Translations under genes and position numbers: made by a program
Origin: a virus
Lineage: Duplodnaviria; Caudoviricetes
DNA: 64,000 nt
IMG/VR virus record: IMGVR_UViG_3300025021_000154
Coordinates: 1 to 64,000 of that record
Reading direction: 5' to 3' (one strand)
In this document: piece by piece, positions 3,382 to 52,477 of the stretch
Position numbering within the stretch: the stretch's first letter is position 1
Layout of the letters: each line of letters opens with the position of its first letter
The notes under the pieces: model-generated
Databases searched by the model: none
The model's input: the letters and a program-made list of their open reading frames with translations, nothing else
Told to the model about the DNA's origin: nothing

Positions 3382-3413
3382 TTACTTACCGGAGATCTTT
3401 GCAAGGTGACGGA
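3382..3413 (-). promoter_or_regulatory. Phage-sigma promoter motif copy 1 (leftward)
   Basis: Minus strand TCCGTC-N14-TCCGGTAAGTAA. Confidence 0.7.
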
Positions 3414-3439
3414 ATCAGACGAAAAGTCCTGCTTTTTTA

Positions 3440-3468
3440 TTGACCTGATATTCATCAGGTCGTATATT
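3440..3468 (+). promoter_or_regulatory. Sigma70 promoter with palindromic operator
   Basis: TTGACC-N17-TATATT; perfect inverted repeat GACCTGAT-attc-ATCAGGTC at 3442-3461. Confidence 0.75.
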
Positions 3469-3523
3469 CTTGATCATAAACTGGGCTTAATCCGCTCAGT
3501 TGCTACGACACGGAGCAATCGTC

Positions 3524-3757
3524 ATGGGAAAGAAAAAGACCTCAGGAATAACGGACCCTCAAGCGAACACGCTCAGGGTCATTTGCGAAATCATCAATGA
3601 GAAGGGGTTGCCACCAACAGTGAAGGAGTTATCGGAAGCCCTGGGTATCAGCCATGCGAGCGCTCACGAGCAGATCGCTCAATTGGTCCAGAAAGGCTAT
3701 TTAAAGAAAGAGGCTCGAAAGGCCCGGAGCATCGTCGTTATCAGAAGGCCCGAATAA
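3524..3757 (+). CDS. LexA-type N-terminal winged-helix protein without peptidase domain
   Basis: ITDPQANTLRVI...GLPPTVKELSEALGISHASAHEQIAQLVQKGYL..EARKARSI; ATG 3524 preceded by GGAG. Confidence 0.8.
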   Translation: MGKKKTSGITDPQANTLRVICEIINEKGLPPTVKELSEALGISHASAHEQIAQLVQKGYLKKEARKARSIVVIRRPE

Positions 3758-3790
3758 CGATGCCGGGCAACGAAAAATAAGGAGAACGCC

Positions 3791-4582: not shown

Positions 4583-6674
4583 GCGATACGTCATCTGTGG
4601 AAACGCTCCGGCGGATGGATTTGAGGAAAATCCTGACCGCGATCTGCGTCTGCGACTTTGGGGCAACGACGGTCCAGACAAGATTACCCTCCGAATCGAG
4701 GACATCCATAAAAAGATGTGCAAGGACGTGCCGGACGCCTTTCAGGACCTGCTAGAAATTGCCACCTACATTTACAGCGCCGATCAGGCCACCCGCCGAG
4801 GAGCCGATGACGTTGATTCTTTTGGTCATGGCTGGCGCAGGGATTTGCACTTCATCATCCCGGTGCGAAATCCAGGCTTTTGGAATGGAGCCGAAATCCA
4901 GCAGGCACTGCGATCCACACTGGGCTTCCTGTCAGACGACAACTACCACTTCGAATTCGTTAAATCGCAGGAGGCTCATTCATTCCAGAGCTACCTCGAT
5001 TTCAATGATGACGGAAGGCTCTTTGGTTACCCTGAGCAGGTTGTGATGTTCTCCGGAGGTTTGGATTCATTGGCGGGAGCCATCGACGAGGTTCTCAATG
5101 AGAAACACAAGGTCGTCCTGGTCACCCACAAGTCGACCCCGAAACTCAACAAGCGCCACCGCCGACTGGAAAAGATGATTGCCGACAAGGCCGGTGAAAA
5201 CGCCCCACTACACATCGGCGTCCGCGTCAACAAGAACAAGGAGCTGAACCACGATTATACCCAACGCAGTCGCTCCTTCCTCTATGCATCCATCGGGGCA
5301 ACTATCGCAAGCATGTTGAACTTGAAAAGCGTCCGTTTTTACGAAAACGGCGTCATCAGTCTGAATCTTCCGGTCTGCGCCCAGGTGGTTGGCGGGCGGG
5401 CCACGCGTACCACACATCCCAAGGTGATCCGAGGATTTCAGCAAATCATCAGCCTAGTTGCTGGCGAACCTTTCACGATTGAGACCCCCTACATCTGGAA
5501 AACCAAGGCCGATGTCATCGAGGTGATTACCAAGGCCGGATGCCAGGACATGATCGCGGTGTCGACCACCTGTACCCACACCTGGGAGATGACCAACCAC
5601 CATACGCATTGCGGAACATGTTCCCAGTGCATCGATAGGCGTTTTGCCATGCTTGCGGCCAAGGCCGATCAATTCGATCCAGTCGAAGCCTATAAGGCCG
5701 ATATCTTCACCCAAAGCAGAAGCAAGGATGAAGACAAGATCATGGCTGCCGCCTATCTGGAACGAGCCAATCAGGTTCGGGATCAGGATGACATCACCCA
5801 GTTCATTGCTCGCTACAGTGAGGTGAGCCGGGTTTTTCGCCATCTGAATGGAAATCCTGGTAGCGTGGCCCAAAGGGTATATGACCTTTATAAGCGCCAT
5901 GCCAAGGAGGTCTGCGAAGCGATGGACACCATGGTCGCCCGAAACATCACGGCCATTCGCCAACGGACACTGCCCGGAGACTGCCTGTTGAGAACGGTGT
6001 ACGAATCCGGTTCGGTGATCTCAGTCCCTGCTATTCCGGTTGAGGAGAAGCAGCCGGACAACTACTTCAGGAAGCGCGGCGGCGTGTGGGCTGCCCGCTT
6101 TAATGGCAACGCCGAAGTGCTCGTCACTGGTGTCGACAAAGGGGCCGAGTACATCAACTTTCTCTTGGGGAGACCCAACAAGGAAACTTCGGTCTATGAG
6201 ATCGTCTGCGGCTTTGCCATCGATAGCTGCAACACGTTTTTGAACTCCGACGAAACCGAAGATGGCTTCCAGGTTACCCAAGGAGTTCCGCTGGGCGATA
6301 CTGGTTTTGTTGCCGACCGCAAGGCCGTCGAGCAATACCGGGAGACTGCTCACGAACTCTTTCGAGAGATTGAAGACGCCCGGGCAGAAAACAACGATGC
6401 CGAGATTCAGCGGCTTGAAGAAGAAATGGCAAAGGTGACCACAGCGATCAACGAGGCTGTTGGCTTGGGTGGCAAACTCCGGAAATCCAACGACAAGCGA
6501 AAGAACGTCCGTGACGCCTTCCGGAACGCCGTAAACCGGGCCATCAAGTATCTGGAGAAGTACGACAAGCCGCTGGCTGCCCACCTGAAGGAATCCATTA
6601 AGTGTGGCAACGAACCGGTCTACCGGACCGAAGAGGAGATCGTTTGGGAGGTCCGCCCCATAGTCAACGAATGA
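4572..6674 (+). CDS. QatC-like QueC (7-cyano-7-deazaguanine synthase) family protein with extra C-terminal domain
   Basis: FSGGLDS PP-loop, RSRSFLY, ENGVISLNLP..TRTTHP, KTK, C..HCGTCSQC zinc site, N-terminal DLLEIA..YSADQ..WRR domain; about 210 extra residues at the C-terminus. Confidence 0.85.
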   Translation: MQDKRYVICGNAPADGFEENPDRDLRLRLWGNDGPDKITLRIEDIHKKMCKDVPDAFQDLLEIATYIYSADQATRRGADDVDSFGHGWRRDLHFIIPVRNPGFWNGAEIQQALRSTLGFLSDDNYHFEFVKSQEAHSFQSYLDFNDDGRLFGYPEQVVMFSGGLDSLAGAIDEVLNEKHKVVLVTHKSTPKLNKRHRRLEKMIADKAGENAPLHIGVRVNKNKELNHDYTQRSRSFLYASIGATIASMLNLKSVRFYENGVISLNLPVCAQVVGGRATRTTHPKVIRGFQQIISLVAGEPFTIETPYIWKTKADVIEVITKAGCQDMIAVSTTCTHTWEMTNHHTHCGTCSQCIDRRFAMLAAKADQFDPVEAYKADIFTQSRSKDEDKIMAAAYLERANQVRDQDDITQFIARYSEVSRVFRHLNGNPGSVAQRVYDLYKRHAKEVCEAMDTMVARNITAIRQRTLPGDCLLRTVYESGSVISVPAIPVEEKQPDNYFRKRGGVWAARFNGNAEVLVTGVDKGAEYINFLLGRPNKETSVYEIVCGFAIDSCNTFLNSDETEDGFQVTQGVPLGDTGFVADRKAVEQYRETAHELFREIEDARAENNDAEIQRLEEEMAKVTTAINEAVGLGGKLRKSNDKRKNVRDAFRNAVNRAIKYLEKYDKPLAAHLKESIKCGNEPVYRTEEEIVWEVRPIVNE

Positions 6675-6714
6675 CCCTGGGCCTTTCAGGAAGAAAAAAC
6701 TAAAAAAAATTTCC

Positions 6715-6752
6715 GCTACGCCAAATGTAGCTCTTGCGACGCCGGATGTAGC
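6715..6752. repeat. Two tandem 17-bp imperfect palindromes (candidate operators)
   Basis: GCTACGCCAAATGTAGC (6715-6731) and GCGACGCCGGATGTAGC (6736-6752). Confidence 0.6.
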
Positions 6753-6788
6753 GCCTTCCCCAATGAAGGCGCGATCCGGCGTTTTTTA
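6741..6788 (+). terminator. Intrinsic terminator/attenuator hairpin
   Basis: GCCGGAT..GCGCCTTC-cccaat-GAAGGCGC.ATCCGGC followed by a T run. Confidence 0.65.
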
Positions 6789-6847
6789 TTGGTCAACAGA
6801 GTGTTGGCCACCGGGCGTGCCAGAACTTCCGAACAAGGAGACTGGCA

Positions 6848-7174
6848 ATGGCACAAGTCAACAAAGCAACCCTCACCCCACCAAAGCGGCGACTCATCGA
6901 ATTGATGCAAGACATCAACTTCGGCCGCATCACCAACATTCCGGTTCACGACGGTGAACCGGAACTCACCCCTGACACGGTCATCGAGCGCGAAATCAAG
7001 CTGGGCGGACAGATCGGTCCCAGGCCTGAGCGCGACCAGGCTGACTTCACTCTCAAGCAAGAGGTCGTGATGCTGCTGGAGCAGCTCTCACAGATGGGCA
7101 GCGGAAAAGTCTGCGTAATCGAGATCAAGCATGGCCTGCCTTTCCTGATGCGCATCGAGGAACGGGCAGCCTGA
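6848..7174 (+). CDS. Hypothetical protein with an internal duplication (possibly DUF2292-like)
   Basis: LIELMQDINFGRITNIPVHDGEP vs LLEQLSQMGSGKVCVIEIKHGLP. Confidence 0.65.
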   Translation: MAQVNKATLTPPKRRLIELMQDINFGRITNIPVHDGEPELTPDTVIEREIKLGGQIGPRPERDQADFTLKQEVVMLLEQLSQMGSGKVCVIEIKHGLPFLMRIEERAA

Positions 7175-7226
7175 ACACGTAACGACCTTAACCCTTAGAC
7201 ACTGGACAACAAGCTGGACGCATGGC

Positions 7227-7364
7227 GGAGGCTGTTGTGGGTGTCGCCGAGCCGAATACGGCAATTGGCGGCGTACCTACGACCCCTTCGCCCACGCGAC
7301 AGCTTTGTCCTGTGATCTGGCCCGTGCCGACACCCACGCGGACCTCCTCCTCGCTCCGAGGAGG
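7227..7364 (+). ncRNA. Candidate structured 5' leader of the sigma gene
   Basis: 10-bp pairing 7237-7246/7328-7337, inner hairpins GCCG-aata-CGGC and GACA-gctt-TGTC, and an 8-bp hairpin occluding the SD. Confidence 0.45.
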
Positions 7365-7369
7365 CTCCG

Positions 7370-7954
7370 ATGGTTTCACACAATTCTTACGATGGCATCG
7401 ACAAGTATGCCGCCGATCTTATTCGGCACAAAGCACGTCAACTGGTCGGCAAGGCCGGATTTACCGAACACGACCGACCTGATCTCGAACAGGAACTGAT
7501 GATCGATCTGCTGCAACGGATGCGGCATTTCAACCCAGCCAAGGCCAAGAAGACCACCTTCATGGCGCGGATCGTCGAGCGTCACATCTCGACCATTCTT
7601 GAAGCCAGGTTCGCCCAATGCCGGGACTGGCGACTCTGCCAAACCTCACTCAACGAACCCCTGGACAACGGCGAAGGCGACACCACCGAGCGCATTGAGT
7701 TTCTTGATAGCGATGGCTCACTGGGAAGCCACCCAAGGATGACCAGGGAACGGGTCGCCAATGAAATCCGCATGGATCTCGACCGGGCGATTGCCTCATT
7801 GCCGGATGAGCTACGGGATCTGTGCGAACGCCTGCGCGACGACACCATGGCAGAAATCGCCCGGGAGATGGGCGTTCCCCGCACCACCCTCTACGACCGG
7901 CTGAGCAAACTCCGTGACGCGTTCCGCGAGGCCGGACTTGAGGACTACCTGTGA
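7370..7954 (+). CDS. Phage sigma70/ECF-like RNA polymerase sigma factor
   Basis: Region 2 (DLEQEL...FNPAKAKKTTFMARIV) and region 4 HTH (AIASLP...TMAEIAREMGVPRTTL). Confidence 0.85.
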   Translation: MVSHNSYDGIDKYAADLIRHKARQLVGKAGFTEHDRPDLEQELMIDLLQRMRHFNPAKAKKTTFMARIVERHISTILEARFAQCRDWRLCQTSLNEPLDNGEGDTTERIEFLDSDGSLGSHPRMTRERVANEIRMDLDRAIASLPDELRDLCERLRDDTMAEIAREMGVPRTTLYDRLSKLRDAFREAGLEDYL

Positions 7955-7956
7955 TC

Positions 7957-7988
7957 TCCGACGCATCAGCCCCGGCTCCGGTAAGTAA
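7957..7988 (+). promoter_or_regulatory. Phage-sigma promoter motif copy 2 (replication/recombination operon)
   Basis: TCCGAC-N14-TCCGGTAAGTAA directly after the sigma stop codon. Confidence 0.75.
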
Positions 7989-8057
7989 GCACCGTGCCGC
8001 ATGGTGCGGCCATCCGGGGCCTCGGAAACCAGAACCTGAATCAAGAGGAGATCAACC

Positions 8058-8396
8058 ATGACTCACGACACTTATAAATACCGTTTTGACGAATCGGTCC
8101 CGGCGCAAGAACTGGAAGACACCTTCATGCTGGCGATGCTTGCCGTCGAAAGTCTGCATGGACGTTCCCGGGTGCGTATGGAGAGCCGCTTCAACCTGGA
8201 TAAATCCAGTCGTACCTGCGTGATCGACGCATCATCCGACGTCGGTAGCGACCTGGCTCGCATCTTCACCGGCTTCGCCACCAAGGAATACGGTGAGCGT
8301 TCGGTAATGATCGAACGTTCCCAGCCCTCGGGCTGCGCCTGTGCCTCCAAACGTCACGCCGCGCCCGCTGCCGCTGCCACGGGGGTGGCGGTATGA
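8058..8396 (+). CDS. Hypothetical phage protein
   Basis: 112 aa, GAGGAG RBS, coupled to the next gene. Confidence 0.7.
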   Translation: MTHDTYKYRFDESVPAQELEDTFMLAMLAVESLHGRSRVRMESRFNLDKSSRTCVIDASSDVGSDLARIFTGFATKEYGERSVMIERSQPSGCACASKRHAAPAAAATGVAV

Positions 8397-9409
8397 GCGA
8401 ATTGATGACCACCACCTATTCTATGTGGCGGCTGTTCCGCAACTGTCGTATGGCCTGCAAGTGGCGCTACATCGACGAGCTGGTGCCACTCGAGCGCGAT
8501 CCCAACCTGGCCTTCGGCGCAGTCATCCACGACTGTCTGGAATGCTGGCACGGTGAACGGGATCTGGCCAATGTCCTCGACCACATCGACAGGACCTATC
8601 CGAACCGGGCGCAGGACGATCATCAGCAAGCGGACTGGCACCTGGCTAGAGCCATGATGAGCGCCTATGCGGAACGCTACCCAGCCGAAGATTTCGAGGT
8701 CATTGCCCTCGAGAAAACATTTGAAGGCCACATCGTCAATCCGGCGACCGGTGCCATGTCTCGCAGTTTCATCCTTGCCGGAAAGGTGGACGGTATTGTC
8801 CGTCAAGACGGCCAGTATTTCTTGCTCGAACACAAAACCGCCGCGCAGATCGACGCCAGTTATCTGGAGCGGTTGTGGACCGACTTCCAGATCATTCTCT
8901 ACGCCTGGTACCTGGAGCAGACCCTCGGCATCACGGTCAGCGGCATCATCTATAACGTCCTGGTCAAAGCCCGACTGCGTCAGGGGAAAGGTGAAACCGA
9001 AGCTGAATACGAAGCCCGCCGAGACGAGCTGATCGCCAAGTCGAAAACCGGCAAGAGCAGCGCCAAACGCAAACTCCCGGAGGAGGACGACGCCTTTCAG
9101 CAGCGGCTCCAGGAAAAGTACCTCGAGCCAGGCATGTTCCACCGCGAGATGCTCTACATCTCCCGCGATCAGTTCGAAGAGCTGCGGGCCGAGCTGTGGG
9201 AACTCTCCAAGGCCATGCTCGATGCCCGTCGACGCAATGTCTTCTACCGCAATACCGGTTTCTGTTTTCAGTACGGAAGACCCTGCGCCTACTTCCAGCT
9301 CTGCCGTTCGGGCGGAAACCCCAACGTTATCGAGAACCATTTCCAACGAATCGCCCCGCACGAAGAATTGCGGGACGGAGCCGGTGAAGACGCCGCTCCG
9401 GTGTTTTGA
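8393..9409 (+). CDS. PD-(D/E)XK exonuclease (RecB/Cas4-like)
   Basis: AGKVDGIV..LLEHKT, QIILY; N-terminal Cys plus C-terminal CFQYGRPCAYFQLC cluster. Confidence 0.85.
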   Translation: MSELMTTTYSMWRLFRNCRMACKWRYIDELVPLERDPNLAFGAVIHDCLECWHGERDLANVLDHIDRTYPNRAQDDHQQADWHLARAMMSAYAERYPAEDFEVIALEKTFEGHIVNPATGAMSRSFILAGKVDGIVRQDGQYFLLEHKTAAQIDASYLERLWTDFQIILYAWYLEQTLGITVSGIIYNVLVKARLRQGKGETEAEYEARRDELIAKSKTGKSSAKRKLPEEDDAFQQRLQEKYLEPGMFHREMLYISRDQFEELRAELWELSKAMLDARRRNVFYRNTGFCFQYGRPCAYFQLCRSGGNPNVIENHFQRIAPHEELRDGAGEDAAPVF

Positions 9410-9435
9410 AATCCCAACCATAAGGAGACGAAGCC

Positions 9436-10206
9436 ATGCTTCCCAAGACTAGAACCAAACCCAAACACACACTCTCGGACCTCACCGCCTTAGTGTATGG
9501 CCCGAGCAAAATCGGCAAAAGCACCTGGTGCTCCAGAGCCGAGGATGCCTTGTTCCTGGCGACCGAGCCGGGGCTGAACGCCCTTGAAGTGTTCCAGACG
9601 CCGATTACCTGCTGGGATGACCTGCTGCAGGCCTGTGCGGAGATCGCTGAAGGCAAGCATGAGTTCAAAACCATCGTCCTCGATACGGTGGATAACGCTT
9701 ATAAGATGTGTTCGGACTACGTCTGCAAAAAGTTCAAGATCGAGCACGAGTCCGACCTCGGCTACGGCAAGGGTTATGCGCTGATCAACAACGAGTTTCA
9801 GCGGGTAATCAACAAACTCGCCTTCCTGCCCTACGGGCTGATCCTGATTTCGCACTCACAGGAGCGGGATATCGAAACCCGAACCGGCAAGCACACCCGC
9901 ATTGTTCCAACGCTGCCGGATAAAGCGCGAAAGCTGGTCACCGGACTGGTCGATTTGATCCTCTTTTGCGACCTTGACATGAAACCCGGTGAGGATGGCA
10001 AGCCTGTCTGGCAACGGGTGATGCGCACCAAGCCCAGTCCCAACTACGACGCCGGTGACCGCACCGGCCGACTCCCCGAAGTCATCCCCCTTGATTTTAT
10101 GAGCTTCATAAAAGCGTTCAACAGCACGGCAACCGTAGCTGCGGCGAGTGCCGCACGGTCGAAGCCGGAGCCGACCGCGAGTGCGGCGGCGAAACCTCAA
10201 CAGTAA
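9436..10206 (+). CDS. AAA_24/Sak4-like ATPase (recombination)
   Basis: Walker A YGPSKIGKST, TIVLDTVD, LISH. Confidence 0.85.
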   Translation: MLPKTRTKPKHTLSDLTALVYGPSKIGKSTWCSRAEDALFLATEPGLNALEVFQTPITCWDDLLQACAEIAEGKHEFKTIVLDTVDNAYKMCSDYVCKKFKIEHESDLGYGKGYALINNEFQRVINKLAFLPYGLILISHSQERDIETRTGKHTRIVPTLPDKARKLVTGLVDLILFCDLDMKPGEDGKPVWQRVMRTKPSPNYDAGDRTGRLPEVIPLDFMSFIKAFNSTATVAAASAARSKPEPTASAAAKPQQ

Positions 10207-10218
10207 GGAGATCCGACC

Positions 10219-10692
10219 ATGGAACAGTACGAAAACCAATCCAACAGCAACCTCGACCTGGCGCAGTTCGATGACGCCTTCGAAACTGCTGAAGTCGAGG
10301 AACGTGAGTTCGAGGCCGTACCCGACGGCAAGTACCAGGTCAATGTCGACCGGGTCGAACTGACCCGCGCCCAGACCTCGGGTAACCCCATGCTCAAATG
10401 GACGCTGCGCATTCTCGCACCGACCCACAAGGGACGTCTGCTCTGGCGCAACAACGTCATGGCCAGCAGCGAGAACATCAAGTGGCTCAAGCAGGATCTT
10501 TACACCTGCGGGCTGCAGCTCCAGAAGCTCTCCGACCTGCCGGGCAGCCTCGAGCAGCTTCTCAACGTCAAGCTGGAGGTGACCAAGCGCACTCGCGGTG
10601 AAAACGAAAACATCTACTTCAACCGTCGCATTGTCATTGCCGACGATGCCGGGGCTCCCGGCGCGGCGATGGACGATATGATCCCGTTCTGA
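10219..10692 (+). CDS. DUF669 SSB-like protein
   Basis: PDGKYQVNV...SGNPMLKW; acidic C-terminus ending DDMIPF; follows Sak4. Confidence 0.8.
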   Translation: MEQYENQSNSNLDLAQFDDAFETAEVEEREFEAVPDGKYQVNVDRVELTRAQTSGNPMLKWTLRILAPTHKGRLLWRNNVMASSENIKWLKQDLYTCGLQLQKLSDLPGSLEQLLNVKLEVTKRTRGENENIYFNRRIVIADDAGAPGAAMDDMIPF

Positions 10693-11174
10693 TGATGGAC
10701 CGGATCACCGTTGTCGTCGACACCCGCGAACAGGAGCCCTACAGCTTCGACGCCGACAAGGTTGCGGCGGTTCGCAAGGCGCTGCCAGCCGGTGATTACT
10801 CGCTGGTCGGCCTCGAGGACCGGGTGGCGGTGGAGCGCAAATCCCTGACGGATTTCGTCTCCACCGTCATCCGGGGGCGCAAGCGGTTCCACCGCGAGCT
10901 GGACAAGCTCTCCGCCTATGAAGCCGCCTGCGTGGTTGTAGAGTGCAACTTTCGCGATCTGGTCGATGGCCGCTACCGCAGCGATGCCCACCCGCACGCG
11001 CTGATCGGAACGGTCGCCTCCATCGTCGTCGACTTCGGTGTCCCCGTCTACTTCTGCTCGGACCGGCAGGCCGCCTGCCGTTTTGTCGAGGAGTTCCTGA
11101 CACGTTTTCACCGGAGGATCGCGAGATGCCAAAAAGATGTGAAAGTACCCCGGCGCGACTCCGGGGAAGAATAG
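10692..11174 (+). CDS. ERCC4/XPF-domain nuclease
   Basis: VDTREQ, GDYS, VERKS motifs. Confidence 0.9.
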   Translation: MMDRITVVVDTREQEPYSFDADKVAAVRKALPAGDYSLVGLEDRVAVERKSLTDFVSTVIRGRKRFHRELDKLSAYEAACVVVECNFRDLVDGRYRSDAHPHALIGTVASIVVDFGVPVYFCSDRQAACRFVEEFLTRFHRRIARCQKDVKVPRRDSGEE

Positions 11175-16659: not shown

Positions 16660-16688
16660 TTGACTTTCAGGCCACTGTCGCCTATATT
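16660..16688 (+). promoter_or_regulatory. Sigma70 promoter of the rloAB cassette
   Basis: TTGACT-N17-TATATT, followed by AGGAGG RBS. Confidence 0.7.
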
Positions 16689-16731: not shown

Positions 16732-18078
16732 ATGATAGTCAGTTTCTCACTCGAAAACTGGATGTCCTTCCGCAGCCGGGTCACTTTTTCGATGGTCGCC
16801 AGTAGGGAGCGCCAGCACGGAGACAGGGTTCCCAAGCTCGGCAAGTACCAGACGAGAGTTCTTCCGGTTGCGGCAATTTACGGCGGCAACGCGTCGGGCA
16901 AGACCAATTTCTTCAAGGCCCTGAGCTTTGCAAAGGCGCTGGTCGTCAAGGGCACACAGCCCGACAGCCTGATCCCTGTCGAGCCGTTCCGGCTGGACGC
17001 CAAGGGGGCCGGACAGCCGTCGCGGTTTGGCTTCGAGCTGCTGATCGACGAGATCATTTACGAGTTCAGCTTCGCGGTAACCCGCAAGGCTATCCTGGAA
17101 GAAAAGCTGGTGGTGATCACGAGCACCAGCGAGAAGGTGCTCTATGACCGCCGCGAAGGAATGCCCAATTTTGACGATTCGTTGACCAAAGACCAATTCC
17201 TTCAGTTCGCCTTCAAGGGGACCCGGGACAACCAACTTTTCCTGACCAATTCCGTTTCTCAAAAGGTCGACAATTTTCGGCCGGTCTACGACTGGTTCAA
17301 GGACACGCTTGAGCTGGTTGCGCCCGACTCGCGTTTCGAGCCTTTCGAGCAGTTCCTCGATGAGGGGCATCCCCTCTATACCACCATGAACGAGATGCTG
17401 CCGCAGCTCGACACGGGGATTGCCCACCTGGGCGGCGAAGAGATCCCGTTCGAAAACATCCCTCTGCCGGAGCCATTGAAGACCAAACTCCAGGAAGATG
17501 TGAAAGAAGGCATGACTGTCCGGTTGATGACGGAACCTATCAACGAGCGGTTCATTGTCACCCGTAAGGGCGGTGAATTGATTGCGAAGAAGCTGGTGAC
17601 CTTCCATCCGAAGTCGGACGGAACAGAGGCCAAATTCGAGATCCGCCAAGAGTCGGACGGTTCACAGCGGGTCATAGACCTTCTGCCTGCTTTCCTTGAG
17701 CTTTCGGCGCAAACCTCAAAGAAAGTCTATGTCATCGATGAAGTTGACCGCAGTCTGCATACCTTGCTGACTCGACGACTGCTCGATGCATACTTGTCCA
17801 ACTGCTCCACGGAAACAAGGTCGCAGTTGCTGCTGACGACCCATGACGTTCTGCTCATGGATCAGCAGCTGTTGCGTCGAGACGAGATGTGGGTGGCGGA
17901 AAGAGACGCTTCAGGAGCATCGAATCTGCTTTCCTTCAGCGAGTACAAGGATGTCCGCTACGACAAGGATATCCGAAAAAGCTACCTACAGGGTCGGCTT
18001 GGAGGAATCCCTCGCATCTTGCTGGGAGGGACACTGACAAATCCCTGCCTCATGGAGGAAAGCGAGGGGGATGAGTGA
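16732..18078 (+). CDS. rloA: AAA_21 ABC-type ATPase (RloA/AbiLi-like)
   Basis: [34 protein letters not shown]. Confidence 0.85.
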
Positions 18079-18702: not shown

Positions 18703-18730
18703 AAGGACGCTCTCGGGCGTCCTTTTCTGT
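18703..18730 (+). terminator. Intrinsic terminator after rloB
   Basis: AAGGACGC-tctcgg-GCGTCCTT followed by TTCTGT. Confidence 0.75.
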
Positions 18731-24610: not shown

Positions 24611-24684
24611 CCGGCATCAAGCCGGGTTCGGCCCATACGGGCCGGATGTGCGGCTGTCATTGCCGAAACTACCGAGAGGATCAC

Positions 24685-39452: not shown

Positions 39453-39914
39453 ATGAGAAGCGGAAACATGCCCAAGAGCCTTTACCAGAACTGGCAGTTC
39501 GCCATCGAGGTAAACGGCTTCGACGTGGCCCTGTTCCACAAGGGACAGGAGCCTAAAACCGAATTCGAGGAAGTTGCCTTCGCCCCGGCTGGTTCGATGT
39601 TCGACCAGAAGGTGGCGGGGCGGGTGAAGTTCGAGGACATAACCCTCGAAAAAGGAAACCTGCAGGACGGCTCTGATGAGGCGGCCCGCGAGTGGATCAA
39701 GAAACAGGTGGACGTGAACGCTGTCACCGGTGGTCTTCCGGCCGACTACATGCGAGACATCGACGTTGTCCGTTACGACCGCACCGGTAATGAGACCCGC
39801 CGCTGGACCCTGCACGGTGCCTGGGTCAAGGCGCTCGAATACGACGAGCTCGAAGGCGGCAACACCGAAAACACCATCGAGAAGCTGACCATCTGCTTCC
39901 AATACTGGACCTAA
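39453..39914 (+). CDS. Tail tube protein (T4 gp19-like)
   Basis: FAIEVNG, GRVKFEDITLEKG, RRWTLHGAW. Confidence 0.93.
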   Translation: MRSGNMPKSLYQNWQFAIEVNGFDVALFHKGQEPKTEFEEVAFAPAGSMFDQKVAGRVKFEDITLEKGNLQDGSDEAAREWIKKQVDVNAVTGGLPADYMRDIDVVRYDRTGNETRRWTLHGAWVKALEYDELEGGNTENTIEKLTICFQYWT

Positions 39915-40607: not shown

Positions 40608-40753
40608 GCGACGTCTTCTTTCTCGCTTACGGCGGACTGCACTGGGGCTATTCGGAAACCCGCTCACTGACGCTCAGAGTCAGGCGACAGTTCGTCGAGG
40701 CTCTTGAGCGGCAGCTTGATTTCGAACGAGAGCAAACGGAACGGCATAAATGA
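40580..40753 (+). CDS. -1 frameshift extension giving the GT chaperone
   Basis: T TTT TTG at 40580-40586; the -1 frame is open to 40753 and abuts the tape measure start. Confidence 0.75.
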   Translation, partial: FFVPRSSLVSDVFFLAYGGLHWGYSETRSLTLRVRRQFVEALERQLDFEREQTERHK

Positions 40754-43700: not shown

Positions 43701-44385
43701 GGATAGAAGCGCTGGGATCGCCAACGGTTTGCTCTCCTCCGCTCGTGCCATGCTGGGAGTCCAGACCCCGATTCCGCAGGTGGCCGAGCAGAAGCAAACA
43801 CTCGGAGCTGCGCAGCCCGCCGAATCGATTGGGCAACGCATCATCGAAAGCGTGCTGAGTCTCGTGCCGCGTCTGGACGAGCGCCTGGTGCCCAAGGCCC
43901 TGAGCGCCATGCTGATGCTCCAGCCGGTCATGGCCACTGCCGCGCCGCCTCCGCAACCGATGAACGGCATCGTGCAGACCGTCGCAGCGGCCGTCGAGCC
44001 GGTAAGTAAGAGCTATATCCAGCCGTTCGCGGTGGAACCGCCACTGGAAAACGGAGATGCCTCTCTGGCTCCGGCCGGGATCGAGCGGCCCAAGACAACC
44101 GCGCCGACTCCGATAGCGAAGCCCCTGCAATCCGGACTCACCGAGACGGTGCCTTCCGAACGGTTGATCGCTCCGGCCCGCACCGCTCCCGCGACACCCA
44201 TGCGCGGAGAGGAAGCCGGTCCGGGAGTGCGCGAACTGCTGGAATCCCTGCTCTCGCGCCTCGATGGCCTGGCCGACCGCCCGGTGGAATTGAGCGTGAC
44301 CACCAACATCGATGGTCGGAAGGTGGCCGAGGCGGTCTACAAGGACCTGCGGGAGCGGAAGATCAGAAACTACGAAACCCTGTGA
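40750..44385 (+). CDS. Tape measure protein (TP901-like)
   Basis: 1211 aa, Ala-rich helical, LGIVVSMKDAFS start, hydrophobic repeats. Confidence 0.93.
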   Translation: MNGDLGLGIVVSMKDAFSQNAQRIRGSMMDLDSTVADASERMTRNMDRIQQGTMMLGAGLALMAAPAVLVASTAATQKALGELASLGVQDLRAIEDAAESFTNQWSGADKAAFITATYDVKSALSNLSDEAVGVFTSMAAMTAKATKATTQEMVGTFTTAYGIFKPIMADMNDMEWATAFSGAMAQTVASFKTNGTQMADAIKNIGAVAAASNIPLNEQLAVLGQLQTTMPGSEAGTLYKAFIMKAAEAGDELGLSFIDTSGRLKGVVPILQEIKRQFPDLSNAAAQVKLKKAFGSDEAVKFLLQMSAGVDSLEGNIQSVGRAMKTGTVVTEQMADAMNQDIGARFVLVRQQMANLSEILGRTLLPVVTPVINGVSRVILFLQRMAKSMPGVTRAILGLSMALGTILVVAGAVTAAVGMVGLMLPAIKAGFVAISAALAGVGSAVATYFLPVIAIIAGVILSVYLLKRAWETNFGGIQDVITGAWNKVSLAFRGIRELVDSLSGGVGQMSAELAQKLESAGLLGFVVTVFKAYYRVREAMAGLWGAFSHAFGRIRAILEPTVRTLMSAYAALASAVFSVVEIFGVAASATDGSSWRTFGTVIGTVAGVLLQGLAFALKIVAWNLSLIVRALAVVVRSVVWVGKIIVGTLVGAAKFIYKFLLPVRMIGEAFVAAGKIVYAVWQVLSGDISLLDGLKAIGGAVYDFLATPFRWARDVVVGVWNFISGIFTSIGRLVTDAAGQIGQAILNLPIISTLRDLFATVRSFFAGDTTFFEAGKKLLITLGEGIWSAVTYPFTMLKNALGKLRNLLPFSDAREGPLSSLTASGSALLKTLAEGMSLTQSLPAKVFGFAARGILSAAAGAWQQIKTAGGNLMDAASVPFRMAGKLWDGLTSGAQTVAAKAGAIFGGLKQSLFSYTPELALKPSQVNAWDALSTGAVNLRNRIVATLSAVPGAVGRIFTNAGAEGQTLWQRLSTGASAGIQAIKDRSAGIANGLLSSARAMLGVQTPIPQVAEQKQTLGAAQPAESIGQRIIESVLSLVPRLDERLVPKALSAMLMLQPVMATAAPPPQPMNGIVQTVAAAVEPVSKSYIQPFAVEPPLENGDASLAPAGIERPKTTAPTPIAKPLQSGLTETVPSERLIAPARTAPATPMRGEEAGPGVRELLESLLSRLDGLADRPVELSVTTNIDGRKVAEAVYKDLRERKIRNYETL
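43978..44009 (+). promoter_or_regulatory. Phage-sigma promoter motif copy 8 (variant, inside tape measure gene)
   Basis: ACCGTC-N14-GCCGGTAAGTAA. Confidence 0.5.
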
Positions 44386-44393
44386 GAGGACCG

Positions 44394-44705
44394 ATGAAAC
44401 GCATCTTTGTCTGCAGCCCGTTCGCGGGCGACATAACCCGAAACGTCAAGGTCGCCGAGGCACTTTGCCGCCAGGTCATGAGAAGCGGCCACGCGCCGTT
44501 CGCGCCGCACTTGCTGTATCCGACCTTCACCGACGACAGCGTTCCCGAGCAGCGGGAGACGGGTATCGCCTGCGGCCTGGCCTTTATGGAGTGCTGCGAC
44601 GAGGTGTGGGCGTTCACCGGCAATGGTATTTCCAGCGGCATGCGGCGGGAACTCGACCGGGCTGGACAACTGGGCAAGCCAATCATCAAGATTGTCGAGG
44701 TGTAA
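44394..44705 (+). CDS. DUF4406/DUF7768-like (nucleoside deoxyribosyltransferase-like fold) protein
   Basis: IFVCSPFAG, APHLLY, CDEVW, SSGMRRE; ATG 44394. Confidence 0.75.
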   Translation: MKRIFVCSPFAGDITRNVKVAEALCRQVMRSGHAPFAPHLLYPTFTDDSVPEQRETGIACGLAFMECCDEVWAFTGNGISSGMRRELDRAGQLGKPIIKIVEV

Positions 44706-44707
44706 GG

Positions 44708-45178
44708 ATGGCCTGGGATCAACAGCCCATCAAGGGATATCTGGTGGATGCCGACACGGGGGAGCGGCTCGAATTCCAGTACAACCCCAACTCCATCAGC
44801 GACGAGAAGTCGACCGACTACGCGACGATCAAGATCCCCGGCATGAGCCATCCGCGTTACCAGTACGTCGCTGGGGAACCACGCCGGATCGCCTTCAAGG
44901 TCGAGCTGTTCAAAGGGCCGGTAAAGCAGAAGGTCGACTGGCTCCGCTCGTTGCAATACCCGGAGCACGCCGGAACCATGCTCAAGAATGCGCCGCACCG
45001 CGTGCTGCTCATCTTCGGCGATCTCTATCCCGGCGTGACCTGCATCGTCCGGCAGGTGAAGGCGCGGTTCTTCGGCCTGTTCGATCGGGACAACCTGCTG
45101 CCGCAACGGGCCGAGGTGGATATTGTCCTCGAGGAATACGTGGACCGTTCCATCAACTGGTCGGAGGTGCGCTCATGA
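44708..45178 (+). CDS. Tube initiator / CIS tube-like protein
   Basis: EFQYNPNSIS..K, PRYQYVAGEPR, FGDL; ATG 44708. Confidence 0.8.
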   Translation: MAWDQQPIKGYLVDADTGERLEFQYNPNSISDEKSTDYATIKIPGMSHPRYQYVAGEPRRIAFKVELFKGPVKQKVDWLRSLQYPEHAGTMLKNAPHRVLLIFGDLYPGVTCIVRQVKARFFGLFDRDNLLPQRAEVDIVLEEYVDRSINWSEVRS

Positions 45179-45531: not shown

Positions 45532-46815
45532 ATGGATCTGGATACCTTCAAACCGACATTTCTGATTCAGATCGAGGGGCAAGCCCTCTCGAAGGACATC
45601 ACCCAGGAGATCACCTCGTTCGTCTTCACCGACAACGAGGAGGAGCTGGATATCCTCGAACTGTCGGTGACCGACCGCAACCTGCAGTTCGTCGATGACC
45701 CTCTGTTCCAGGAAGGCAATGAGATCGTGGCCCGCTTCGGCTACGTGGGGAACCTCTCTCCGCGTAAGAAGGCGGTCATCAAAGACATCGATTACGATTT
45801 TCCGGAAAACGGCGACCCGACCATCCGCATCAAGGCCTACGACAAGGGCTTTAAACTCGCGGGCAAGGAAAACCAGAAGGTCTGGCAGAAACCCGCTCCC
45901 GGCATCCTCTATTCGGAAATCGCCGAGCAGATCGCCGCCGCCAACGGCCTCACGCCGGTGGTTACGGCCACCAAAGGCAACCATCTCCGCGTCACTCAGA
46001 GCAACATCTCGGACGCTCAGTTCCTCAAGGAGCTGGCGGAAAAGGCCCGCGACCGCGATGGCGACGGTGTGAGCGGCTATGTCTTCTACGTCCAGGACGA
46101 CGAACTCCATTTCCATCCCCGCGAGCTCGACCAGACGCCGCTTCTGACCCTCGAATATTTCACCGACACCAAAGGCCTGTTGCGTTCGTTCCGTCCGAGC
46201 ACCCAGTCCCAGGGAGCCAAGGGCGCGGGTGTCGAGACCAAAACAGTCGGCATCGACCCGCGCAAGAAGGATGTGGTCGAGCACAAGGCCAACAACGCCA
46301 CCACGCCCGAGCGGACGGCCCTGGGCAAGCAAACCTATCTGGTCGACGGCAACACCGGCGAAGGCAGCTTCAAGGAACAGGAGACGGGGCAGATCGTGCC
46401 CAGCTTCGACCGTTCCGAAGGCTTTCACGAAGAGCCGCGCCAGGAGCCCGCCCAGGACAACGCCGAAGGCAAATTCCGCGAGGCCGAGCTGCGCCAGGTC
46501 GAGGCGGATGCGGCCACCATCGGCATTCCCCAGCTACGCGCCAAGAAGAACGTCGAGATCAAGGGCGTGGGACGGAAGTTTTCCGGCATCTATTACTGCC
46601 ACTCGGTGCGCCACAGCATCAGCGGCGCTGGCTATCTCTGCGAACTCAAACTCAAGAAGAACGCCCTCGGCAAGGGCGCGGGCGACAAGTCCGCCGAGTC
46701 CCAGGGCAAACCCAACGACAAGGAGGCCCCGCCCACGCCGCAAAACGAGCCGCCAGCCATGGTGACCATCGACGCGGATTCCGGCGCGGTCACACAAGGA
46801 GGCGGCAATGGGTGA
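45532..46815 (+). CDS. Baseplate hub (late control gpD-like)
   Basis: Q.NISDAQFL.ELA, GIPQLRA..KGVGRKFSGIYY..VRH. Confidence 0.88.
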   Translation: MDLDTFKPTFLIQIEGQALSKDITQEITSFVFTDNEEELDILELSVTDRNLQFVDDPLFQEGNEIVARFGYVGNLSPRKKAVIKDIDYDFPENGDPTIRIKAYDKGFKLAGKENQKVWQKPAPGILYSEIAEQIAAANGLTPVVTATKGNHLRVTQSNISDAQFLKELAEKARDRDGDGVSGYVFYVQDDELHFHPRELDQTPLLTLEYFTDTKGLLRSFRPSTQSQGAKGAGVETKTVGIDPRKKDVVEHKANNATTPERTALGKQTYLVDGNTGEGSFKEQETGQIVPSFDRSEGFHEEPRQEPAQDNAEGKFREAELRQVEADAATIGIPQLRAKKNVEIKGVGRKFSGIYYCHSVRHSISGAGYLCELKLKKNALGKGAGDKSAESQGKPNDKEAPPTPQNEPPAMVTIDADSGAVTQGGGNG

Positions 46816-48640: not shown

Positions 48641-48653
48641 AGGGAAGCATTGC

Positions 48654-49028: not shown

Positions 49029-49288
49029 GTTCCCAGGCTCGACTCGGCGACATCAGCAGTCACGGCGGCGTCATTATCACCGGGGCGAGCCGGACGCTGG
49101 ACAACGGCATGCCGGTGGCCCGCATGGGGGATCTGCACGTCTGTCCCATCCCGGGGCATGGCGTGACGCCCATCGTGACCGGCAGCTTCGACACCATCAC
49201 CGAAGGATTGCCCAACGCCCGCATCGGCGACATCACCGCCTGCGGAGCCATCATCGTCACCGGCAGTCCCGACACCATCGACAACTGA
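49025..49288 (+). CDS. PAAR spike-tip protein
   Basis: ARLGD..SHGG, PVARMGD.HVCP..GH, PNARIGD..ACGA. Confidence 0.92.
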   Translation: MSSQARLGDISSHGGVIITGASRTLDNGMPVARMGDLHVCPIPGHGVTPIVTGSFDTITEGLPNARIGDITACGAIIVTGSPDTIDN

Positions 49289-49298
49289 GGGGGACGCC

Positions 49299-49607: not shown

Positions 49608-50614
49608 CCGATACCCCGCCAGCCTTTAGCCACTGGGAGGTTCAGCCTCGCTCCATCCGCCTCTCCGCTGGCGAGTTCGAGCAACGGGTTCCGCTCTCCC
49701 TGCGCGGCGACGTGGACGCCCCGGTCTTTGCCTCCAGCAACCCGGAGGTCGCGGAGATCGGGCCGGATGGCGTCATTCGCTGCGGCTGGACCATCGGCAA
49801 CGCCGTGCTCATGGTCTGGCGATCCTCGGTCCGGGACAGCCTCCGCCATGTTCTGGTGGAGGTCCGCGATCCGTCCTGGTTCGCCGACCACCCGGACTTT
49901 GCCAGCGGAGCCACGGTCTTCCTCAGCGGCATGGTGGTCAACGCCCTCAACACCAGCGGCGTCGGCAACGCGCTGATCGAATTCCGCCGCTCGGAAACCG
50001 GCCCGGCTGCATACCAGACCTTTGCCAACGCCTATGGCGGGTTCGAGCTGACCGTGCCCGAGGGGTTCTATTACGTGGAGGTCACCGCGTCTGGATACAT
50101 CGCCTGGCATGGCTGGGTGAACGCCGACCCCAACACCTCCGGCGACATCCAGATCGTTCTCTCGCCCGAACTCGACGGCCAGGTCGCCCGCATCGTGTTG
50201 CAGTGCGGACTCAACCCCAGGGATCTCGATTCCCATCTCACCGGACCGACGCCATCGGGCGGCCGCTTCCATGTGTTCTATTCCCACACCATCGAAAACG
50301 AGGCGGCGGAATTGGACGTGGATGACACCAGCTCCTACGGGCCGGAGACCATCACCATCCATCGGCTCATCCCCGGCGTCTACCGCTACGCGGTCCACGA
50401 CTACACCAACCGCAACGCCAATCCGAGCACCGGCCTGGCGCAGTCCGGAGCATCGGTGAAAGTGTTCCTGAGCGATGGCCGTGAGCAGACCTTCACCGTT
50501 CCCAACTCCCCGGGCACGGTCTGGACCGTGTTCGAAATCGACGGTGCGACCGGGACAGTGACGCCGGTCAACGCCATGAGCTATCAATCCCAACCCGCCA
50601 ATGTCGGCATGTAA
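49604..50614 (+). CDS. Big_2 + carboxypeptidase-regulatory-like + YfaP/DUF2135-like protein
   Basis: SSNPEVAEIGPDG; LSGMVVNA..G.F.LTVPEG.Y.VEV..GY; DLDSHL..LDVDD..GPETITI..PGVYRYAVH. Confidence 0.75.
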   Translation: MTDTPPAFSHWEVQPRSIRLSAGEFEQRVPLSLRGDVDAPVFASSNPEVAEIGPDGVIRCGWTIGNAVLMVWRSSVRDSLRHVLVEVRDPSWFADHPDFASGATVFLSGMVVNALNTSGVGNALIEFRRSETGPAAYQTFANAYGGFELTVPEGFYYVEVTASGYIAWHGWVNADPNTSGDIQIVLSPELDGQVARIVLQCGLNPRDLDSHLTGPTPSGGRFHVFYSHTIENEAAELDVDDTSSYGPETITIHRLIPGVYRYAVHDYTNRNANPSTGLAQSGASVKVFLSDGREQTFTVPNSPGTVWTVFEIDGATGTVTPVNAMSYQSQPANVGM

Positions 50615-50626
50615 TGGAGGTTGTCC

Positions 50627-51517
50627 ATGATTTCCGAAGAACCCGCCGACTTGCAGGCCACCATCGAACAAACCGATTCCGGCGAACAGCAGTATGTTTT
50701 ACGGGCGCTCTGCGATCACCTGTCCGGCATCCGTGAAGAACTTTCCGGCATCCGCACGCTGCTGGAGGCCAGTCACGCCGCCTCGGAGGCGATGCGCGGC
50801 CAGGCCCAGGCCTATCTGGAGGCCCAGCAGGCCAGGACGCAGGAGTATCTGGATCAGGTACAGGTCGAGCCGGAGCCCGATTTCTATCCCTTCGTCGAGC
50901 TGCCAGCGGGCACCGAGCCCCGGGATCTGCCGGACGGCAACCGGCTCTTTACCTTGCCCGACGGCATGATCCTGCGGACCACTGACGACCAGCGAATCTG
51001 CGTCATCGACGCCGGGGAACAGCAGGTCGTCACTCCCGGACCCGGCACGGCCATCGAGGTCGCCCCGGGACGCCTTTACACCCTGGTCGAGTCCTATCTG
51101 CGTTCGACCCAGGAAGCGGCCGGTATCAGCGGACTGCCTGCCGGGACCGAGCCGACCGCCATGGGCGCGGAACGCATCGCGGTGGATCTGCCCGAGGGCA
51201 TCCGTCTTGACGTCGATCACCGGGAGCGGTTCATCACCCTGATCAATCCGGCCGGACCTATCGACATCATCGGCATCGGCCGCATCGAGGGCATCGGCGA
51301 AACCATCGCCATTCGTCTGCTCTCCGGCGGGGCCAAGGGATTCCAATGCGGCCTGTCCGGCCACGGCGGGCTGATCGAGGCGGACGGCACCATTCATCTG
51401 GGACTCAAGAGCGGTCTGGATCTGGTGATTCGGTTCCCGGGAGAAGCTATCGACGACGACACTTCGGAAAATGGCTGCTCGGGACAGTGCGGCATCGACT
51501 GCGAGGAGCGTATCTGA
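50627..51517 (+). CDS. Hypothetical protein (coiled coil + repeated beta domain)
   Basis: ATG 50627 with GGAGG; LPAGTEP repeated twice. Confidence 0.65.
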   Translation: MISEEPADLQATIEQTDSGEQQYVLRALCDHLSGIREELSGIRTLLEASHAASEAMRGQAQAYLEAQQARTQEYLDQVQVEPEPDFYPFVELPAGTEPRDLPDGNRLFTLPDGMILRTTDDQRICVIDAGEQQVVTPGPGTAIEVAPGRLYTLVESYLRSTQEAAGISGLPAGTEPTAMGAERIAVDLPEGIRLDVDHRERFITLINPAGPIDIIGIGRIEGIGETIAIRLLSGGAKGFQCGLSGHGGLIEADGTIHLGLKSGLDLVIRFPGEAIDDDTSENGCSGQCGIDCEERI

Positions 51518-52434
51518 TGAGCTACGATTTCCTCGGCAAGGGATTGCGCTACCCGTTCCGGTTTCAGTCGGTATCCGGCGGCACCCAGATCTCGACCGCC
51601 ACCTCGCGGGAGCACGAGCATATCCGCGAAAGCATCCTGCAGATCCTCGGCACCAGGATCGGCGAACGGTTCATGAATCCGGAGTTTGGCTCCCGGCTGA
51701 AGGATCTGGTGTTCGAACAGAACGACGAGGTCCTCAAGGGCCTGCTGCGCCATTACGTGATCGACGCTATCAAACGCTGGGAAAAGCGGGTGATCATCAC
51801 GGAGGTGCGCTTCGACGACCGGCCGTTGAACATCGACGGCAACCTGCTGCTGGTGCATATCGCCTACCGGGTGATCCAGAGCCAGGTGGACGGCAACCTG
51901 GTCTATCCCTTCTACAGAGAAGACCCGAACAATCCCGCGCCCAGCTATCCCCAACCGGAACCCGAGCCTGAACCGCCGCCGGTGCGCAGCGTGCGCCTAT
52001 CGCCAGACGTGCGCTCGCTGTTCAATCTGCTCTGGTTCGACGCGGCCGAGATGAGCCCCGATCCGGCGGATTCCTTCCTCTGGCCAGCCGGGGAATACGA
52101 AGTCGCCTACATCGAGGGAGCCTTTCAGGACCGCAACGGCAAGTGGATCGTCAGCGATCCGGGTGACAACCACGGCCATTACCTGGTGTTTGAGGGAGCG
52201 CCCGAAACCGAAGCGCCCCAGGCCGAGCATGCCCTCTATCTGGCCGCGAGCGGTCTGGGTTTCGACACCCAGAGTCAGGCGGAAGACAACGCCGCTGGCA
52301 CCATTCACCGGATCACCACGCTGGAGCCGGGTCGCATCGGACTGTTCTATTTCGAAGGCAAGAAGGAATCCCACTACCTCAACAACACCTCCGGGCAGCC
52401 CAACCCCGTCTGGCAACTGCGCGGCCCGCTCTGA
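51517..52434 (+). CDS. gp25/gpW baseplate wedge protein with C-terminal extra domain
   Basis: IRESILQILGT.IGERFM.PEFGS, WEKRV; PQPEPEPEPPP linker then ~150 extra aa. Confidence 0.85.
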   Translation: MSYDFLGKGLRYPFRFQSVSGGTQISTATSREHEHIRESILQILGTRIGERFMNPEFGSRLKDLVFEQNDEVLKGLLRHYVIDAIKRWEKRVIITEVRFDDRPLNIDGNLLLVHIAYRVIQSQVDGNLVYPFYREDPNNPAPSYPQPEPEPEPPPVRSVRLSPDVRSLFNLLWFDAAEMSPDPADSFLWPAGEYEVAYIEGAFQDRNGKWIVSDPGDNHGHYLVFEGAPETEAPQAEHALYLAASGLGFDTQSQAEDNAAGTIHRITTLEPGRIGLFYFEGKKESHYLNNTSGQPNPVWQLRGPL

Positions 52435-52445
52435 GGCATCCCACC

Positions 52446-52477
52446 TCCGACACATCCAGGCCTCTTCCGGTAAGTAA
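52446..52477 (+). promoter_or_regulatory. Phage-sigma promoter motif copy 10
   Basis: TCCGAC-N14-TCCGGTAAGTAA. Confidence 0.78.

Follow-up and report, generated by a model that had tools for sequence, protein, structure and literature searches.

The window analysed in this work, i.e. the first 64,000 nucleotides of the 89,086-base IMG/VR virus record IMGVR_UViG_3300025021_000154, represents the left part (64 kb) of a temperate, contractile-tailed phage and contains ten near-identical copies (P1-P10, Table 1) of a bipartite DNA motif, CCG(A/T)C-N14-(T/G)CCGGTA(A/T)GTAA. We propose that these sites probably form a single phage-specific promoter class, read by an extracytoplasmic function (ECF)-type sigma factor encoded by the phage, together with the host core RNA polymerase. 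A preliminary description of the window had already interpreted the two boxes as -35 and -10 elements recognized by the phage sigma factor, and this interpretation is now supported on comparative grounds: by the protein family of the predicted sigma factor, the geometry of the motif, its synteny in related phages, its specificity, its co-occurrence with the sigma gene and the presence of a clade-specific second box. Judging from the genes located downstream of the ten sites, one sigma factor would drive excision, replication and morphogenesis.

Ten copies of a bipartite motif

The pattern search revealed exactly 10 matches in the window, compared with a mean of 0.00 in 100 dinucleotide-preserving shuffles, in full agreement with the earlier claim of ten copies with fixed spacing. 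When the 11-mer CCGGTAWGTAA alone was searched in the window with up to 1 mismatch, the result was these 10 sites and nothing more. In a scan of the whole 89,086-base record with a weight matrix derived from them, the sites scored 32-58 bits, while the next best position reached only 3.7 bits (a gap of ~28 bits from the weakest site); thus, there are no degenerate copies and the motif appears to be all-or-none. The same scan found no copy in the cargo part of the record (64-89 kb). Table 1 lists the corrected coordinates: the ten sites themselves stand as previously reported, but the starts given for the plus strand were all one base too low.

Eight copies are located in short non-coding gaps, 24-149 nt 5' of start codons with Shine-Dalgarno sequences. 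All copies are oriented toward the downstream genes, and the opposite-strand copy serves the one leftward operon. The earlier count of nine sites upstream of genes and one intragenic site requires a correction: the eight gap positions and the intragenic position of P8 hold, but P4 overlaps the 3' end of orf92, as it corresponds to the last 31 nt of this conserved 92-aa gene and the final TAA of the motif is the orf92 stop codon. P8 is the weakest copy (32 bits), conserved with one spacer change in the genome of Desulfosarcina alkanivorans (G001). In G001 and G005b, the orf80 homologue likewise has a site in the P1 position 5' of it.

Comparison with six related phages (orthologous proteins 40-98% identical) revealed a site 55-140 nt before the matching gene in all six for P2 and P9, in five for P4 and P10, in four for P6 and P7, and in three for P3 and P5. 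In the case of P2 the matching gene is the orf112 homologue, and the site is kept even in the group with the most distant sigma factors (41-44% identity). When 47 non-redundant sites, taken from nine related elements, were profiled, the information was confined to the boxes tCCGAC(A/G)nnT and ttCCGGTA(A/G)GTA(A/T), with ~0 bits at spacer positions 10-18 and in both flanks and with invariant spacing; since the search pattern had fixed a part of the columns beforehand, independent evidence of conservation comes only from positions 0, 6, 9, 19-22, 27 and 31. A faint preference for A is seen 7-8 nt past the motif. In the 41-44% group, the site immediately 3' of the sigma stop codon has CCGACAC.TCG and GGTAAGTAA with unchanged separation, but lacks the TCC. 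As the TCC preceding GG is lost in these most distant relatives, the conserved core is CCGAC-N17-GGTAAGTAA.

If the boxes are aligned in the manner used for ECF promoters, the motif reads xxGAC-N16-CGG. The features of ECF promoters, namely two conserved boxes, a rigid spacer of 16-17 nt and a lack of symmetry, are all present in the 47-site profile; the box letters are GAC and CGG (as compared with AAC and CGT in the ECF type, and GAC and CGT in the relative from Wolbachia phage WO described below), hence we speak of a resemblance and not of a match to a curated model. No dyad or direct-repeat symmetry and no TATAAT-like hexamer was found in the aligned sites, and the boxes are not mutually complementary. 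A full-text literature search with the 11-mer returned only unrelated papers, in none of which the consensus was found described, and no relevant publications were retrieved for WO sigma promoters or for prophage-encoded sigma factors of these hosts.

The phage sigma factor and its relatives

The product of the gene 7370-7954, previously described as the phage sigma factor, exhibits a significant match to the NCBIfam family TIGR02937 (sigma70-ECF; 51.3 bits, cut-off: 42.9, residues 16-187) and to phrog_1740 (3e-27), a match at the cut-off to Pfam Sigma70_r2 (24.2 bits, cut-off: 24) and a match under the cut-off to Sigma70_r4_2 (17.2 bits, cut-off: 25.7). Its profile aligns to ECF structures, namely to the sigma-2 domain of SigE (2q1z) and to region 4 of both AlgU and E. 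coli sigma-E. The AlphaFold2 (AF2) model comprises two helical domains, of which the C-terminal one spans residues 126-187, joined by a disordered linker (residues 87-124), and a Foldseek search with this model reported exclusively ECF sigma factors as the top matches, with full-length alignments. The features of group 4 are recognizable, i.e. region 2, a helix-turn-helix (HTH) in region 4 (indicated by the TIGR02937 span, the profile and the model alike), and two linked domains without regions 1.1 and 3. According to the sequence matches and the predicted structure, it is a genuine two-domain ECF-type sigma factor. It is encoded by the sole sigma gene in the 89-kb record, the only other match being a faint region-4-like stretch in orf92. 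In the alignment of sigma factors of 41-100% identity the region-4 HTH is nearly invariant, which matches the invariant CCGAC box, while the loop between the region-2 helices differs according to the sigma clade.

Five bacterial genomes (4-7.3 Mb) were found to contain 43 copies of CCGAC-N17-GGTAAGTAA, located on one strand within prophage-sized regions, with one exception: an opposite-strand copy in G005, ~52 kb from the nearest prophage site, which was later identified as an island copy (see below). A control search of these genomes with the reversed pattern gave no matches. In a larger sample, comprising 401 genomes from the class of Desulfosarcina (sigma homologues counted at E<=1e-15), at least 4 motif copies are present in six genomes, all of which carry the sigma factor (62-91% identity). 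The remaining six sigma-positive genomes encode a more distant relative (47-52%) and have 0-1 strict copies. However, in the two of them that were examined (G261 and G137), as well as in the second prophage of G001, CCGAC-N17-GGTAGGTAT or its close variants occur at the same gene junctions; this sigma clade, at ~50% identity, is associated with a second box of its own, GGTAGGTAT. D. alkanivorans (G001) possesses two prophages, one per sigma clade, each with its own box-2 type, which argues for a reader encoded by the phage and not by the host.

Sigma genes 90-99% identical to that of the window were found under the titles Geobacteraceae, Desulfosarcina, Desulfofustis, Desulforhopalus, Oleidesulfovibrio and Syntrophotalea (L051-L072), and also in bins labelled Verrucomicrobiota, Rhodospirillaceae and Sedimentisphaerales. 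These labels indicate either an unusually broad host range or mis-binned phage contigs. Cultured lysogens found in this work include Desulfosarcina alkanivorans PL12, Desulfofustis glycolicus DSM 9705 and Desulforhopalus sp. IMCC35007.

The sigma gene is always flanked by orf108 and orf112, both without a family match. orf108, a member of all six related phages (37-89% identity), gave no match in Pfam, PHROG or NCBIfam, and the protein atlas returned only unnamed clusters. Many, though not all, ECF sigma factors have a cognate anti-sigma gene as a neighbor; here, neither the family searches nor the atlas gave a lead to a recognizable anti-sigma factor. In the clade of the window no motif copy precedes orf108-sigma. 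A terminator and two GCTAC-N7-GTAGC-type palindromes are found 5' of this operon; the stretch in question (6700-6847) contains the palindromes and a long hairpin with a T run behind it. The palindromes and the hairpin are conserved in G001, G005b and G137, and are replaced by another sequence in G004 and G261. It is probably in this region that the expression of the sigma factor is decided. A sigma-54-like element 5' of orf108 was considered and dismissed, as its spacing, judged by eye, is one base too long. In G004, which represents the clade with ~70% sigma identity (L073, ~6400-11150 of the joined phage), the orientation of the DUF2924-recombinase operon is opposite to that in the window; its motif copy, 3.8 kb upstream of orf108-sigma and in the same orientation as these genes, thus reads toward orf108 and the sigma gene and would allow positive feedback in that clade.

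Gene layout and islands at the tmRNA gene

Table 1. Motif copies, host-type promoters and genes in the window (positions as numbered in the window).
Feature	Position	Strand	Remarks
P1	3382..3412	-	reads left into orf80, DUF2924 and serine recombinase; 149 nt gap to orf80 start
P2	7958..7988	+	begins 3 nt past sigma stop codon; ahead of orf112 and recombination/replication block
P3	19097..19127	+	ahead of orf257 and orf92
P4	20193..20223	+	GGTATGTAA variant; ahead of terminase block
P5	24580..24610	+	ahead of portal and MuF-fusion genes
P6	31640..31670	+	ahead of methyltransferase/protease-scaffold fusion and major head gene
P7	37032..37062	+	ahead of orf182, sheath, tube and tape measure
P8	43979..44009	+	within 3' part of tape-measure gene, frame reads through; ~370 nt before following genes
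P9	45471..45501	+	ahead of tail/hub protein and baseplate genes
P10	52447..52477	+	ahead of baseplate wedge (J-like) and tail fibre genes
ECF-type sigma factor	7370..7954	+	194 aa; proposed reader
orf108	6848..7174	+	always directly 5' of sigma gene; candidate partner or anti-sigma
Sigma-70-like promoter	3440..3468	+	before LexA-like repressor candidate and QueC-like cargo
Sigma-70-like promoter	16660..16688	+	before AAA_21/RloB pair
tmRNA 3' end (host gene)	1..14	+	attachment core CCTCCACCA at 6-14
Large serine recombinase	852-2438	-	leftward operon
DUF2924	2428-2961	-	leftward operon
orf80	2990-3232	-	leftward operon
LexA-N-terminal-domain-like HTH	3500-3757		repressor candidate; QueC-like pair (cargo) follows
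AAA_21/RloB gene pair	16732-18674
orf257	19168-19941	+
orf92	19945-20223	+
Terminase, candidate small subunit	20315-20815
Terminase, large subunit	22998-24521
Portal	24646-26193		MuF-fusion gene follows
Methyltransferase/protease-scaffold fusion	31724-34120
Major head gene	34514-35377
orf182			before tail sheath
Tail sheath	37908-39437
Tube	39453-39914
Tape measure	40750-44385
Tail/hub protein	45532-46815		baseplate genes follow
Baseplate wedge (J-like)	52534-53943		tail fibre genes follow

The window begins with the 3' end of a host transfer-messenger RNA (tmRNA) gene, whose final 9 nt are the target of the serine recombinase. The attachment core CCTCCACCA plus the following ~120 nt are repeated at positions 88961-89086 of the record, which suggests that the record contains a complete phage unit (88,955 bp); it seems to represent either a head-to-tail joined unit or the integrated and circular forms caught together. 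It is labelled linear and 59% complete in its collection, despite the terminal repeat. Beyond the repressor candidate and the cargo, the gene order continues with orf108, the sigma gene, orf112 and the recombination/replication block, which encodes PD-(D/E)XK, AAA_24, DUF669 and ERCC4 proteins, a RecD2-like helicase and a primase. Directly 3' of the tape-measure gene, an open reading frame (ORF; 44382-44705) matches nucleoside 2-deoxyribosyltransferases (phrog_355, 9e-31) and overlaps, in another frame, ORF 44312-45178, which has homologues in related phages. Within the baseplate gene region (49123-49194), a marginal Rfam match to the Pseudomonas small RNA (sRNA) P10 was reported (37.7 bits, gathering score: 37), which is probably due to chance.

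Host-type promoters of the form TTGAC-N17-TATATT had been mentioned in the preliminary description, and two of them, TTGAC(C/T)-17-TATATT, were indeed found. They are the only good sigma-70-like sites in the window and both precede non-lytic genes; between 27.9 and 47.9 kb there are 0 such promoters as opposed to 3.1 expected. The second one belongs to a self-contained insert between the replication block and P3 (16660-18724), composed of the promoter, an AAA_21 ATPase, an RloB-like protein and a strong terminator (18703-18724), which looks like a defence pair expressed during lysogeny. Terminator-like matches between the gene blocks occur at chance level, hence the motif copies may reinforce one long rightward wave of transcription instead of governing isolated operons.

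Motif copies were also found outside the phages. At least 11 of the 401 genomes lack the sigma factor and possess 1-2 perfect copies of the type CCGACAC(G/T)TTCTC(C/T)GT(C/T)TCTCCGGTAAGTAA, and a scan of species-representative genomes identified 53 island loci, most of them without sigma (L089-L094, L105-L157), including isolates of Thiohalocapsa, Ectothiorhodospira, Prosthecochloris and Desulfurivibrio. All the islands share one layout: defence-type cargo and an XRE-type HTH gene are followed by the motif, an ORF of 62-63 aa, a terminator and the 3' end of the tmRNA gene, which lies ~335 nt downstream of the motif (e.g. L089:5987-6240 and tmRNA L089:6355-6710). In 31 of 52 island loci a second, tandem copy is present ~70 nt upstream. 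The explanation that the tandem copies sense two sigma clades was rejected, as 26 of the 31 upstream copies are of the same GGTAAGTAA type. The cargo includes type I restriction-modification systems, RadC, RhuM, Fic, reverse transcriptase and AAA_15 proteins. No recombinase was found among the island ORFs scanned. Two complete islands (8.7 and 15.9 kb) are flanked by TGGTGGAGG repeats, and the island boundary is the same 9-bp tmRNA core as that used by the phage. In one of these two islands there are cargo genes with 60-70% identity to those of the right arm of the phage, and in G017 the phage sits exactly between an island and the tmRNA body.

The 62-63-aa ORF is conserved and reads toward the attachment site, but has no family match; homology to orf80 or to any other protein of the window was sought and none was found. 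We tentatively speculate that the islands have copied the promoter of the phage sigma factor and would be silent until a phage of this family brings this factor in, whereupon they would express the small protein to hitch-hike on the phage or to interfere with it. In the former case the island may be a satellite-like or cis-mobilizable element, in the latter case it may be an infection sensor, encoding for instance an anti-sigma factor; alternatively, the islands may be remnants.

Proposed circuit, other possible readers and known systems

According to the model that we favor, box 1 (tCCGAC followed by purine-n-n-T) would serve as the -35 element contacted by the invariant HTH of region 4, region 2 would contact box 2 (ttCCGGTAAGTAA) as a long -10 element, and the 16-nt separation of the boxes (GAC-N16-CGG) would represent the ECF geometry, with transcription starting a few bases past GTAA. 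We infer the following order of events: the orf108-sigma operon would be released first, from behind the terminator and the palindromes, and the sigma factor would then turn on all lytic genes together or in quick succession. P1 would drive the recombinase operon, P2 the recombination/replication genes, P3 orf257 and orf92 (a small activator), and P4-P10 the genes for packaging, head, tail and baseplate, while the genes of lysogeny and defence would stay on ordinary sigma-70-like promoters.

Several observations weigh against this model. P8 is intragenic and has the lowest score, and might not fire. The 13-bp box 2 exceeds the usual ECF -10 element, so a second protein may bind there too. The sigma factors of the ~50% clade differ from that of the window both in region 2 and in region 4, hence the link between the protein and box 2 is only a correlation. 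The co-occurrence cannot separate the sigma factor from the proteins that travel with it, i.e. orf108, orf112 and, above all, orf92. Finally, the perfect motif copies in many sigma-less genomes could mean that the motif is read by a host factor.

The companion proteins are the subject of an alternative that we regard as unlikely, namely that the motif (or box 1) is the site of a phage activator that recruits polymerase with a host sigma factor, while the phage sigma factor has another task or works only jointly with the activator. Among the candidates, the Mor/C-like orf92 ranks first, ahead of orf108 and orf112. It is a small HTH protein similar to phrog_836 ('late transcriptional activator'; 2.7e-6, residues 3-88; no Pfam family above threshold), conserved in all six relatives (48-91% identity), and its gene directly precedes the packaging and morphogenesis genes, with the stop codon within P4; the unusual length of box 2 also speaks for such a protein. 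However, orf92 is itself located behind the motif copy P3 and therefore cannot start the cascade, in contrast to the sigma operon, which has no copy in front. Moreover, the motif exhibits neither the dyad or direct-repeat symmetry used by dimeric activators of the Mor/C type nor anything like a sigma-70 -10 hexamer, and phage WO has a sigma factor and an alignable bipartite motif, although orf92 has no homologue that could be detected there (at such a distance, a weak negative). orf92 may be the reader, but it is more plausibly a cofactor for the late sites.

It is highly improbable, in our opinion, that the motif is read by a widespread host alternative sigma factor or regulator and has been borrowed by both the phage and the islands. 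Such a reader would account for the perfect copies beside the tmRNA gene in genomes without a homologue of the phage sigma factor, and for their occurrence in 53 species-level records that include isolates from other phyla. Nonetheless, the sigma-less genomes hold only a single copy or a tandem pair, which does not amount to a host regulon, and of the five sigma-carrying genomes that were scanned, only one has a copy outside the prophage regions, namely a single island copy; the host regulon was rejected on this basis. The hosts span several phyla, as judged from the record titles, which makes a single shared host factor unlikely, and box 2 changes with the clade of the phage sigma factor and not with the host, as illustrated by the two prophages of G001. 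Equally hard to credit is a role of the motif in RNA processing or antitermination, or as a DNA site for replication, packaging or methylation. Most gene blocks are not separated by terminators, which makes long read-through transcripts plausible, and the copies are placed at the boundaries of the blocks. However, no Rfam family was found at any of the ten sites, and the boxes are not complementary and the spacer is free to vary, which leaves no conserved RNA structure and makes complementarity or covariation between the boxes impossible; the RNA-level reading was rejected for these reasons. Promoters fit better with the strict orientation relative to the genes, the fixed class of distances to start codons and the opposite-strand copy for the leftward operon. 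Promoters of a T7-like polymerase also seem unlikely, as no polymerase gene was found: PF00940 was not detected in the 89-kb record (a family for which the control genomes cannot give a positive), and no polymerase domain was detected in any phage ORF scanned.

If this prediction is correct, the window presents a complete wiring diagram of a lytic switch, with one sigma factor, one promoter code, ten transcription units, and host-type promoters for lysogeny and defence. The phage family is widespread but unstudied, its hosts being sulfate reducers, Geobacter relatives and sulfur-oxidizing gammaproteobacteria; a self-contained pair of sigma factor and promoter may help to explain why near-identical phages (sigma ~90%) are found under the titles of several bacterial families, and would lend itself directly to use as an orthogonal expression part. 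Judging by the island copies, neighboring mobile elements can apparently listen in on the phage sigma factor. Together with the parallel in phage WO, these copies appear to be the most worth following up.

The WO phages of Wolbachia are the only phage records in which tblastn detected a relative of the sigma factor (KX522565, gwv_1123; 25% identity over 95% of the query). In WOVitA1 (KX522565.1), a gap and then the AAA_24 replication module come after the sigma gene, and the record contains exactly three copies of TGGACGAAT-N10/11-CCGTGTATATAT, at 55752(-), 56601(+) and 65192(+) (L158/L159). One copy is in the gap after the sigma gene, another precedes the leftward gwv_1121 block that leads to the tail genes, and another reads across the record end toward the head module. 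With its longer spacer, the WO motif aligns with the present one as xGAC-N15-CCGnGTA. Thus, the two phages share the order of the sigma gene, a promoter-like site and the AAA_24 module, as well as alignable bipartite copies, but in WO the boxes (TGGACGAAT and CCGTGTATATAT) are AT-rich, there are three copies and not ten, and the spacer varies by one base. Homologues of orf108 and orf112, like that of orf92, were not detectable in WO, with the same reservation concerning the distance. The three sites provide a concrete hypothesis on how the genetically intractable WO turns on its modules.

ECF promoters, such as those of E. coli sigma-E, B. subtilis sigma-W and M. tuberculosis SigH/SigL, consist of a -35 element GGAAC and a -10 element CGT separated by 16-17 nt, the primary transcript typically starting 6-9 nt past the latter. 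The system predicted here resembles ECF group 4 in the two-domain sigma factor of ~190 aa, the TIGR02937 match and the rigid bipartite GAC-N16-CGG geometry. It differs in having CCGAC in place of GGAAC and a 13-bp second box of the CCGGTAAGTAA type, in being encoded by a phage and in that no recognizable anti-sigma factor was found; furthermore, in contrast to ECF autoregulation, the sigma operon itself has no promoter copy in this clade. The late promoters of phage Mu that depend on Mor/C combine a dyad-symmetric activator site overlapping the -35 element with a -10 element of the sigma-70 type. Like Mu, the present phage has a small HTH protein annotated as such an activator (orf92), whose gene immediately precedes the late genes, but its motif has neither the dyad-symmetric activator site nor the sigma-70-type -10 element.

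It is well known that phages may encode sigma factors with promoter classes of their own, and in this respect our prediction is unsurprising. Sigma-like factors of phages and prophages include Xpf of the Bacillus subtilis prophage PBSX and the ECF-like gp36 of coliphage phiEco32, and the sigma factor described here is likewise proposed to be a small phage protein that redirects the host RNA polymerase to phage-specific promoters. In contrast to these systems, however, the phage in question is a temperate myovirus-like phage of Gram-negative hosts, in which one promoter class with ten near-identical copies would cover excision, replication and all of morphogenesis, i.e. the whole lytic programme, which makes it an unusually complete and clean case.

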